DNA of 64,000 nt from Octopus vulgaris (Eukaryota), in NCBI GenBank assembly GCA_951406725.2, contig OX597826.1, positions 12,276,001-12,340,000 on the forward strand, in the 5' to 3' direction. The position numbers and the translations under genes were made by a program. Of this stretch, positions 35,994 to 56,814 are shown piece after piece (the stretch's first letter is position 1; each line of letters begins with the position of its first letter). The notes under the pieces were generated by a model. That model worked only from the letters and a program-made list of their open reading frames with translations. It was not told the origin of the DNA and did no database searches.

Positions 35994-36037
35994 ACACAAC
36001 GTTTCGGCTGATATACCCTCCAGCCTTCATCAGGTGT
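35994..36037 (-). ncRNA. Intact minimal type I hammerhead ribozyme of Penelope type
   Basis: acac-CTGATGA-a-ggctg-gagggtatat-cagcc-GAAAC-GTT-gtgt: full core, 4-bp stem I, 5-bp stem II, palindromic stem III. Confidence 0.85.
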
Positions 36038-51652: not shown

Positions 51653-51817
51653 GGCGCAGGAGTGGCTGTGTGGTAAGTAGCCTGCTAACCAACCTCGTGG
51701 TTTCGGGTTCAGTCCCACTGCATAGCATCTTGGGCAAGTGTCTTCTGCTATAGCCCCGGGCCGACCCATGCCTTGTGGGTGGATTTGGTAGACGGAAACT
51801 GAAAGAAGCCTGTTGTA

Positions 51818-51862
<45 letters not shown>

Positions 51863-52088
51863 ATGTGTTTGTGTGTCGGTGTTTGTCTCCCTAGCATTGC
51901 TTGACAACCGATGCTGGTGTGTTTACGTCCCCGTAACTTAGCGGTTCGGCAAAAGAGACCGATTGAATAAGTACTGGGATTACAAAGAATAAGTCCCGGG
52001 GTCGGTTTGCTCGACTAAAGGCGGTGCTCCAGCATGGCCGCAGTCAAATGACTGAAACAAGTAAAAGAGTAAAAAGAGTAAAAGAGTA
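51653..52088 (+). mobile_element. SINE family A
   Basis: Colinear with 4597-5025. Confidence 0.93.
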
Positions 52089-52094
52089 ATTCAT

Positions 52095-52890
52095 TAATTG
52101 CTCCACTTCACTTTGGAATTGAGTGAAAACGGATCTCCCTTTTCTGGATATTCTAATAATTAAAGAAAATGAGACAGTTACAACCGATCCGTACTGAGAA
52201 ATCACTAACATACACCAATATTTATATTACTGATCTTGCCACCCTTCCGATACAACAAGGGACATACCATTCAATATGGCTAGACGTATATACATAATTG
52301 TTACAGGCATCAACAGACGAGAGAAACGACTGGTAGAACTAAATATGTTTCTTCAAAAACGGAAATACCCACAAAAGTTAATAAATCATGCAAAAACCAA
52401 GGCAAAATAAATCCCGATCTTTGTCTTACGGAGAAACACTCATACTAAGGGTGAAAAGGAAAATAGCAATATAAATATTCCATTTGTAGTCATCCATATT
52501 TCTAGGAACCACAACCATCAAATCTCAAGAGATTTCTAAAGAAGGCAAGATTTATTTCGCAGAAAAGGAAAAAGACAAGTATTAAACTCTGGATACCCGC
52601 CCTGTGGGACATGTGAAATAATTGAACAAAGAACAATCAAAAGATTCACGAATAGGAAATAACTGAAAGTGAATGCAAGCATGAGCTGCAAAACAAAACA
52701 TCTCATCTGCTGTGTCACATGACCGCGATGCAATGATAATTTTAATGGAGAAAAACGAATAAAACTAACCAATCGTGTAAACGTGAAGGTACGACAATGC
52801 AACATAGAAATGTTACACGGAGTAGACATCTACACGTTTGTCCAAATGGAAAATTTTAGATAATCACGTTTTACAAAATTAAGGATGGAA
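52095..52890 (+). pseudogene. Penelope-like element RT C-terminus and GIY-YIG remnant
   Basis: FTLELSENG/PFLDILII; HQYLYY*SCHP..DIPFNMARRI; CKTKHLICCVT*PRCNDNFNGE (cf. CxSxNVIYxIxCxxCxxxYIGET). Confidence 0.82.
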
Positions 52891-52955
52891 GGTGTCTGTA
52901 AGCCATTTAAGAATCACACAAAAGCCGTTCGATTCACTTTAACATTTACATTTAA

Positions 52956-53006
52956 TTTGTCAAAATATTTTCGTCGCTTTAAGACCGCGACCTGTTCACT
53001 GACAAA
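52956..53006 (-). ncRNA. Minimal HHR with a swapped G3-C8 core, between 22-bp inverted repeats (52892-52913 / 53022-53043)
   Basis: tttgtca-GTGAACA-g-gtcgc-ggtcttaaa-gcgac-GAAAATATTT-tgacaaa. Confidence 0.75.
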
Positions 53007-54077
53007 AGTTCGTGCTGCCATTTCTTAAATGGCTTGCAAACACTTTCCACGCTGCAATTGCTTTCGTTTCAGCACACGATCTCAGATTAAATCAATTGCT
53101 ATGCAAGTACATCTCCGTAAAATTAAGAATGAAAATAATCAACTACGGAAGCGAAAGAAGTACACTTCAATAAGAATTCTAAATCAGAAACTAAACCGGA
53201 AATATGTAACACCATTAGAAAAAACAGCTTCCTCTTTGTGCACTATCCCGGAACAGATGTGTTTAATAACGCTAGAAATGAAATACATACTATATACGAA
53301 CTTCTTCCACAATGGTAAGTGACATTCGCTTAATAATCTATCGCATTTATTTTAGATGGGCATTAGACCTATAAGGTCAAGATATTTATAAATTATAGCT
53401 GTCTCCAATCTGAAATTGCACTCCTTTCCTGCAACAATAGATGCTTACTCGTAATAGATACTGTCACATTTATTAACAGTGATATTAAATAAATAAAATA
53501 GTTACCAAATTGGGATGTAATGAGAAAGAAAGAACGAAAAATAAAAGAGAAATTGGAACATTTTGAAGAAACAAAAAGTCAATATTACAAAATAAAGGAG
53601 GTGACTCTGGCACTAAAGTACAACTGACCAAGATATCAAACTGACATCTGTGTGTCATTAACCACTCCCTTGCTTCAGGGGAATATAAGATAACTTATTT
53701 GTGATGAAAACAAGTAAGGGAAAGTTCCTGAGACTTTTGAAATGTTGTCAGTAACTGAATCTCAATGGCTTGAGTAAAATTCATTCAGTGGCAAACTAAA
53801 AATTCGTCAAAAAGATTGCATGGAAAATATGACACTGTCAATAGATAACTGTCTTAAGAAAGAGTAGCAATTGTTTTTGTATAAAAGCACACACAGACGC
53901 GCAAAAACAAAAATAAATAAAATAAGAACCACACAACAAATAACAAATCATGCCTCTTCTTCGAAGCAAGCATTTTCGCACACAAAATCACTTGGCAAGC
54001 TAATGGAACTTCGATATATACACATAACTATATTTAGACGTTGCATATATACATACATATACGCACATGCAGTTACG

Positions 54078-54757: not shown

Positions 54758-55238
54758 TAAATCGTGGGTAAAATTTTAATTTGCCCCCATCCATCCATAC
54801 TTAGTATCCAATTGCTAAATTGCCATGCAATACTAAGCACTTGGTTATAATACGTAAGTACGCATCCAGTTGTACATTGGATATTAATATCCCTTAGATG
54901 GTTTCTTAACCTCTGATGCATACAAAAGCGCCCGCGCACACACACACACAAACACAAATATATACATACATATATAGTAATTCATAAATACTATGTGTAT
55001 ATTTAGCTGGAGTTTTTGATAGTTTTTGAGGGTATCGGCACTTCAAGCATGCTTTGTGAGTGGATTTAGTAGACGGAAACTGAAAGAAGCCCGTCAATAC
55101 TCGTTCTGTATTGGTTTTCATTTTTCCTCTAATATATAAATCAAGCTTTAGCTGTGGTCTTGGAACCTAACGGTCGACCAGCTGTAGCTCTTACTCAGCG
55201 TACATGCTCGTTTAGATCACAAGTGAACTAAACCCCTC

Positions 55239-55679: not shown

Positions 55680-56651
55680 TAATATTTAGTAAGAACCCTA
55701 TTAGGCATGTTACTGACGAATACTCTCTTGAGGAATTTCTTGTCAAGTTTCATGCAGTAATCTCAAAAGATTTGGCTTTGAAGATGCTTTCTTGTTCTTT
55801 GTAAGGAAGTGTTCTGTCCATTATGTCCCAGAGGTGTTCAATAGGGTCCAAAACTGGTGACTGGCTTGGCCACGGAAAATTTTTAATGACATTCTCATCC
55901 AAAAATCTCATGTGACAAGGGCCTCCATCTTGCACACAATTAAATAGTCTTCTTTAATCATTTCACCACTGGAAAAGATTGGAAGGACCCCTTTCTGCAA
56001 TATGGACTCAAATTTATCTGAGTTTATGTTTCCCTCACACTCCACTAGTTCTGATAAACTATTGCTCCAAATTGCTCCCCTGACCATCTCAGAATAGCTT
56101 CCGTGTTTCACTGTTGGCTGCAAACTTTTAACATCAAATTTTTGATCACTGAGTCTCTAGACACACGTTCAACCACTGTCAGGAAATACAGCAGTTCAGG
56201 ACTAATCAGAGAATATGACAGTGTCCCAAAAATGCTAGTGGCCTCTCCACCATCTCACTGCGCAATCTTTTCTCTGCTTGATGTTGGCTAGCCGAAGAAG
56301 ATGTTTCCTCTGTGCTGCTCTGCCATAGTAACCAAGTTTGTGGAGATACCGGAAAGCAGCTCTGCGACTGACATCAACTTCTGCTATGTCAGAGGCCTCG
56401 CAACGAGAATTATCCTCCACACTTCTCTTAACAAAGAGACGGGTTATGTCACAGGGCCCCGGTTGATCTGCGCAAGGTGATGTGAATGTCTTCCCCTCTC
56501 TGGTGAATTGCACAAACACTCTATTAATTGTAGAAAGCGATGTCCCAAGGTTTTCAGCGATTTTAAGCTTACTATATCCACCAGCAGAATGACCCACAAT
56601 ACGGCCTCTTTGAAATTCAGACAGTTCCAAGACTTCTTTTGTATATGGCAT
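55680..56651 (-). pseudogene. Tc1-family (DD34E-type) transposase pseudogene
   Basis: LSEFQRGRIVG HTH; IFSD*S; PTVKHG; QDGGPCH; WPSQSPVLDPIEHLWD; frameshifts and stops. The element likely spans about 55600-56782. Confidence 0.9.
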
Positions 56652-56814
56652 GATTAAATAGACACATATAGGACCTGAAATATGAAAATGTCAATTAATA
56701 AAAAACAAAAACCTTTACAAGTTAGAATAAATATTAAACGATGAATTTATGGAGTGTTTATTTACTCCTGTCATGATTGTGTATGTGTGTGTATATATAT
56801 ATATGTATGTATGC

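Follow-up and report, generated by a model that had tools for sequence, protein, structure and literature searches.

The 64,000-nt window of the Octopus vulgaris genome analysed here carries, at 53006-52956 on the minus strand, a sequence laid out as a type I minimal hammerhead ribozyme in which core positions 3 and 8 are exchanged, G3 (52999) and C8 (52994) standing where the consensus has C3 and G8. This locus raises the questions of whether such a core is the inherited state of a ribozyme lineage or an accident of one broken copy, and to which mobile element the ribozyme belongs. Judged from sequence comparison, it represents a lineage-wide natural core variant of a known ribozyme class in a known element class, the Penelope-like elements (PLEs).

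A hammerhead with an exchanged 3-8 pair

Read on the minus strand, the motif, recognized by sequence and fold, comprises a 7-bp stem I (53006-53000 paired with 52962-52956), the core GUGAACA (52999-52993), a 5-bp stem II with a 9-nt loop (52991-52987 paired with 52977-52973), GAAA (52972-52969), the palindrome AAUAUU (52969-52964), and a UUU site, which places the predicted cut between 52963 and 52962. The stems, core, GAAA, palindrome, and UUU site had been named in the first-pass annotation of this DNA and all are present, together with an extra G (52992), between core and stem II, that it did not mention. U4, G5, A6, A9, G12, A13, A14, the A15.1-U16.1 pair, and H17 are all found in the motif and kept in the F1 and F2 consensus; the consensus identities C3 and G8 are replaced by G3 and C8, making the motif a hammerhead variant. 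The two core changes had been read as restoring the 3-8 pair, and G3 and C8 are indeed Watson-Crick complementary.

A descriptor allowing any Watson-Crick 3-8 pair matched the window twice, compared with 0.09 matches per window in 100 dinucleotide shuffles, none of which was as strong, and a looser pattern matched once against 0.03 expected (3 of 100 shuffles). The folding energy of the motif by itself is unremarkable (z of -1.3). Rfam returned no hammerhead match at the motif and likewise missed, at the gathering threshold, the canonical hammerhead at 36033. The latter (36033-35995, minus strand) is a second minimal hammerhead in the window, with a C3-G8 pair and an AACGUU palindrome, and belongs to another family with 13,139 genomic matches, for which no ORF was found in 30 loci.

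Closure of A15.1-U16.1 in a monomer is computed to cost +5.4 kcal/mol, so that helix III would need a partner molecule; the AAUAUU self-duplex, formed by a perfect palindrome, is computed at only -0.2 kcal/mol. The description of the motif as structurally complete therefore suits a dimer but not a monomer. Fold prediction gives stems I and II pairing probabilities of 0.5-1.0 in the parent context, and the inverted-repeat hairpin of the window copy is predicted to lower that of stem I to ~0.19 in the window insert. A predicted G3-U17 pair competes with G3-C8, and a distal extension of stem I is also predicted. A second copy of the family is absent from the window.

The exchange is shared by a lineage

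In the genome searched (G000, 2.8 Gb), a pattern leaving positions 3, 7, and 8 free gave 8,892 matches. Among the first 100 listed of these, 90 have G3-C8, three have C3-G8 and belong to a sister family, and seven carry single changes, a number close to that at the free position 7 (5 in the same 100) and hence as expected from decay after insertion. When copies were picked by an upstream 29-mer alone, regardless of their core, 28 of 30 had G3-C8. In an older family, F2, whose loci were picked by downstream sequence alone, the core could be read at 21 of 30 loci, 13 of which showed G3-C8 and none C3-G8. These three samples make G3-C8 the family consensus, family-wide conservation of GTGAACA having been proposed earlier as a check. 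Both G3 families have U17 rather than C17, and the helix III palindrome is kept with a change in length (AAUU in F2, AAUAUU in the window family).

C3-G8 is retained in three sister families, with 5,470 matches to a pattern requiring it, and these show the reciprocal pair in the same register. One of the three, the very young family at loci L116-L118 (e.g., L117:2263-6198 plus leader) and L160-L189, has intact ORFs of 1,312 residues, ~55% identical to the parent ORF; a database protein labelled Octopus vulgaris matches a sister-family ORF at 98.9% identity. In this youngest sister, 18 of 30 loci carry C in place of the conserved A9, which its older relatives keep, so that a family still active has apparently undergone a natural loss in its core. 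Another sister family, F5 (L220-L239), has the same layout and register with 12 C3-G8 and 8 U3-G8 cores (n = 20); U3 opposite G8 in 8 of 20 copies seems above the variation elsewhere, and these copies are possibly a wobble subfamily.

Twelve family representatives compared at the 3-8 pair gave six CG, six GC, and no unpaired case, and stem II has changed on both sides. U4, G5, A6, G12, A13, A14, and A15.1 are invariant in this set, and A9 is changed in one family. In an unrooted tree of 47 rows, chosen by patterns requiring the core and built with positions 3 and 8 masked, 24 G3-C8 rows are separated from 23 C3-G8 rows by one branch with support of 100/99. As C3-G8 is near-universal in print, we take it as ancestral, and the tree indicates that C3-G8 changed to G3-C8 once, as one event and not as repeated covariation. 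By simple reasoning, no chain of single paired steps joins C-G to G-C, and the lineage must therefore have passed through an unpaired state; G8C alone is reported to slow cleavage 100,000-fold (PMC8495972). A metagenome pattern scan yielded, among the 120 matches listed, three with minimal stems, none convincing and none near a PLE ORF.

The parent element

Full or partial parent copies (L080, L123, and L126) contain a single ORF with a reverse transcriptase (RT), a CX3CXXC linker, and, at the C-terminus, a GIY-YIG domain. The ORF has a YVDD motif, and its GIY-YIG domain matches Pfam PF01541 with an E value of 9e-5, above the cut-off; Pfam RVT_1 gave no match on the partial parent ORF. The L123 ORF (minus strand, 6545-3471) and the L117 ORF both show an RT with 128 residues between motifs A and B and a C-terminal endonuclease. 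This spacing of 128 residues in the parent RT compares with 59 in the other PLE type of the genome; finger insertions have been described mainly in elements with an N-terminal endonuclease (EN) (Craig et al. 2021, 10.1101/2021.04.23.441226).

In L080, the ribozyme is found in sense ~1.1 kb past the stop codon; in L126, it stands in sense before the ORF, the ATG following 56 nt after the predicted cut. An open frame running through the ribozyme and constraining its core was considered and rejected, the ORF starting downstream of the ribozyme. Together with the pseudo-LTR (pLTR) bearing the hammerhead, the tail, the inverted 5'-truncated copy, and the variable target-site duplication of the family, these features classify the parent as an EN+ Penelope-like element. 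Copies have their 3' ends at two fixed points of the ORF, 32 nt in (54 of 108) and 92 nt in (44 of 108), with 10 elsewhere, matching the two internal RT starts and the tail of the anole PLE, and the arms of the inverted repeats differ in length between family copies.

5' ends and the template RNA

We examined the 5' ends of 95 copies at 85 loci of a single contig, picked by sequence 3' of the cut (first 100 listed of 8,358 matches). Fifty of them start no more than ~6 nt from a position 23 nt ahead of G3, 8 extend further upstream, and 37 are shorter. Only one starts at the cut, ambiguously, some starts being blurred by inverted junctions. A pile-up of 5' ends at the cut was thus found neither in the 95 copies of the swapped family nor in a canonical hammerhead family of the same genome, in which 0 of 33 copies, inspected by eye, start at its cut. 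Since the canonical control behaves likewise, the missing cut-site ends do not single out the swapped core.

Among the 24 copies ending at the inferred start, 13 have G where the element has C (two of them representing one duplicated junction), 8 retain the C, and the other 3 show A or T. An extra G just before AGATG is seen at L391, L393, L397, L415, L419, and L426, and also at L429, L431, L432, L443, L467, and L472. We take such a non-templated 5' G to be a copied cap, which would imply uncut polymerase II RNA as the template. Such a base would also fit initiation of transcription 23 nt upstream of the core, and the copies probably derive from uncut, capped RNA. A sequence resembling an intron 3' end lies directly upstream of the ribozyme (987 matches). 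A splice acceptor at this place was considered and set aside; a transcription start fits better because many copies keep the AG or more, and splicing of some RNAs is possible.

Proposed mechanism and alternative explanations

We propose, with somewhat better than even confidence, that the motif derives from the pseudo-LTR hammerhead of a young PLE, that its 3-8 pair was swapped once and then kept, that the parent ribozyme likely cleaves slowly as a dimer or aided by the element's protein, and that the window copy is a probably inactive passenger. Transcription would start 23 nt before G3 and give a capped RNA. Two ribozymes of a tandem transcript would pair via AAUAUU, and a minority of RNAs would be cut 60 nt from the 5' end. 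The uncut RNAs would be those copied, the RT starting at two internal sites on both nicked strands to leave a direct-plus-inverted copy.

Slow self-cleavage of the G3-C8 parent hammerhead seems likely in view of the conserved core and palindrome, U17 instead of C17, and the partial rescue by C3G/G8C, a double mutant that in a PLE hammerhead regains part of the cleavage (PMC11167929). According to a remark given as "data not shown" (PMC3884650), G3-C8 performs better in the absence of C17, and U17 in both G3 families fits this preference. Activity is disfavoured by the weak dimer helix, the competing G3-U17 pair, the A9C sister family, and the dispensability of cleavage for insertion in vitro. 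The A9C change in the youngest sister may indicate that constraint on catalysis has relaxed in the clade.

A serious though rather unlikely alternative is that the fold is kept for structure, as a site of protein binding or as leader architecture, and that catalysis by the swapped core is negligible in vivo. The copies apparently coming from uncut RNA and the loss of A9 in the youngest sister are compatible with it, as are the reports that ribozyme mutants of the anole PLE had no effect on insertion in vitro (PMC11167929) and that minimal PLE hammerheads cleave poorly (PMC4209133). However, the 3-8 pair is part of a tertiary-stabilised, active-type core (PMC3884650), and its complementarity, together with the invariant catalytic positions in diverged families, argues for selection on the active conformation.

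Compared with slow and occasional cleavage, a more ambitious version of our proposal, which we consider unlikely, holds that a natural active G3-C8 lineage crossed an active-site fitness valley, kept the pair through several subfamilies, and uses the cut for mRNA and not for the template. The cut would then yield an uncapped leader 56 nt before the AUG, reminiscent of viral hammerheads, in which the cut serves an uncapped mRNA leader (PMC13725137), and a cut serving mRNA would account for the origin of all copies in uncut capped RNA.

It is improbable, in our view, that the decaying ribozyme of a single master element fixed two substitutions by chance, which amplification then carried along. 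The single origin of the swap would suit such an accident, as would the A9C change in a sister family and, by the reasoning above, the relaxed phase needed where no paired single-step path leads from C-G to G-C. Yet the only two changes of the core consensus hit paired positions and are complementary, for which a rough estimate, before ascertainment, is ~1 in 200, and the remaining core is intact in F1 and in the older F2 despite divergence of loops and flanks.

A nested insertion in an older element

The window copy lies within an old broken PLE remnant of the plus strand, recognized by six-frame translation with stops and frameshifts, the 5' part of which (52089-52887) holds the RT C-terminus and thumb, the zinc-finger linker, and the start of GIY-YIG, and which continues at 53119-53334 with the end of GIY-YIG and the 3' region. 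Between them stands a 235-bp PLE end fragment (52886-53120) with a direct and an inverted part, delimited by comparison with family copies and empty relatives and flanked by a 13-bp target-site duplication (52875-52887, whose last 2 nt are shared with the element end, and 53119-53131) that agrees at 12 of 13 positions. The direct part, a fragment of the pseudo-LTR leader on the minus strand (52886-53020), is identical to L012 at 127 of 135 nt; it begins ~2 nt short of the inferred transcription start, stops ~10 nt short of the inner 3' terminus, and includes the parent start codon (52904-52906, minus strand), 56 nt past the predicted cut and opening a continuous ORF in the full-length L126. 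The inverted 5'-truncated copy (53021-53120, plus strand) consists of the leader end and the 60-nt PLE tail and is identical to L012 at 91 of 100 nt. The initial 30 residues of the parent ORF are encoded by its stretch 53029-53119, as a peptide that runs on into the ORF in L126 and aligns to the N-terminus of a sister ORF with a score of 48, reached by 1 of 2,000 shuffles.

The remnant has 70-77% DNA identity to 11 genomic relatives, none of which contains the 235-bp unit, their sequence being continuous across the site; seven of the 11 resume at 53119 with exactly 13 nt of overlap, and four have indels of their own there. The 13-bp duplication and the uninterrupted relatives thus define the unit as an insertion into the GIY-YIG region of the old element. 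The 29 other best family loci share only 52882/86-53123 with the window, and the flanking remnant is found in none of them. The remnant resembles L078, a nearly intact PLE belonging to another lineage (25% over 245 aa by tblastn, E value of 5e-16), and its best tblastn match to the ribozyme's parent ORF has an E value of only 1.3. By sequence, then, the unit came from an unrelated and younger lineage of PLEs and is nested in the remnant.

These findings change the placement given in the first-pass annotation. The motif, located there directly after the Penelope remnant, lies inside it, the remnant resuming at 53119, and it belongs to the inserted unit and not to the RT/GIY-YIG sequence around it. 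It is in sense in parent copies, so that its supposed antisense orientation holds only relative to the unrelated remnant. The inverted repeats do exist, but the 22 bp described contain 2 mismatches and the full repeat is 28 bp long with 3 mismatches (left arm 52886-52913, where direct and inverted parts overlap, and right arm 53022-53049); far from being a special frame, they are the usual footprint of PLE inversion left by the inverted 5'-truncated copy, a typical product of PLEs (Craig et al. 2021, 10.1101/2021.04.23.441226). An antisense ribozyme of the adjacent remnant, framed by terminal inverted repeats, is suggested by adjacency and opposite orientation within the window but is hardly credible given the 13-bp duplication, the 11 uninterrupted relatives lacking the unit, the 29 family loci lacking the remnant, the unrelated parent ORF, and the sense orientation in parent copies. 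A MITE or other terminal-inverted-repeat element was also rejected, arm length and junction varying among copies and the long arm lying on either side, as was a non-LTR retrozyme, the window copy being solitary and from an ORF-bearing element.

As a nested fragment of the younger PLE, the window copy is probably a truncated, inactive passenger in the older element: the first bases of the leader are missing, no partner lies in the window, and the hairpin is predicted to suppress stem I. Family copies in or beside PLEs of the other lineage were seen at 3 of 60 screened loci (L017, L043, and the window) and in addition at L078. Five dispersed copies (L404, L408, L442, L444, and L447) have one identical inverted junction, which suggests that a hairpin-shaped composite unit was itself amplified. 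Family copies also lie in a ~1.47-kb tandem repeat (L007 and L008, G000:C25 near 40.07-40.08 Mb) and, at L016, as five clustered copies in direct and inverted orientation, arrangements that could allow dimer formation. Elsewhere in the window, broken reading frames at 55750-56690 on the minus strand, noted from ORF translations, resemble a Tc1/mariner transposase remnant, and repeats at 51660-52090 and 55048-55094, which recur in many of the loci examined, resemble pieces of tRNA-derived SINEs.

Significance

The window copy is one broken copy among thousands of the parent's front end, and its interest lies in the lineage that it reveals, which would add a third Watson-Crick state to natural hammerhead 3-8 pairs. 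Consensus-based searches skip G3-C8, so ribozyme counts in animal genomes would be too low. The surprise is moderate, as the double mutant keeps some laboratory activity. Nevertheless, the G3-C8, C3-G8, and A9C sister families with intact ORFs form a comparison set within one genome that bears on whether PLE hammerheads are selected to cut and on the purpose of the cut.

Comparison with known systems

A natural G3-C8 hammerhead was not found in the literature covered, where G3-C8 cores are laboratory variants and natural U3-A8 is known. As in the metazoan PLE pLTR hammerheads (Cervera and de la Pena 2014, PMC4209133), the ribozyme described here is of type I, with an additional nucleotide that separates positions 9 and 10.1 and a G10.1-C11.1 pair; it also shares with them a short palindromic helix III, the position in the pLTR, mostly solitary truncated copies, and pairs on opposite strands. 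PLE hammerheads are typically marked by such a nucleotide before G10.1 and by a palindromic helix III of short length (PMC4209133). Here this nucleotide is G, against A, C, or U in the published consensus, and none of the representatives in Fig. S3 of that paper has G3, nearly all having C3 and three U3, under descriptors that fixed the core. Natural U3-A8 variants (Perreault et al. 2011, PMC3088659; Schistosoma PLEs, PMC4209133) likewise exhibit natural covariation at 3-8; unlike U3-A8, which is reachable from C3-G8 via a U-G wobble, G3-C8 has, by reasoning, no paired route.

The parent element resembles the Neptune and Nematis C-terminal EN+ PLEs (Craig et al. 2021, 10.1101/2021.04.23.441226) in its RT, a linker of the CX2-5CXXC type, the C-terminal GIY-YIG, and CCHH-type residues, and also in its inverted 5'-truncated copy, tail, TA-repeat insertion, and pLTR hammerhead. 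With Poseidon PAc of Anolis (Frangieh et al. 2024, PMC11167929) it has in common a hammerhead at the pLTR-ORF junction, an uncut RNA template, two internal RT starts that define an early-ORF tail, and AT-rich targets. The PAc ORF starts inside the ribozyme, whereas here the ATG lies 56 nt past the cut and the tail measures 60 nt. Finally, C3G/G8C in PAc is an engineered and partly active change (PMC11167929), and in the octopus lineage the same swap is the wild type.
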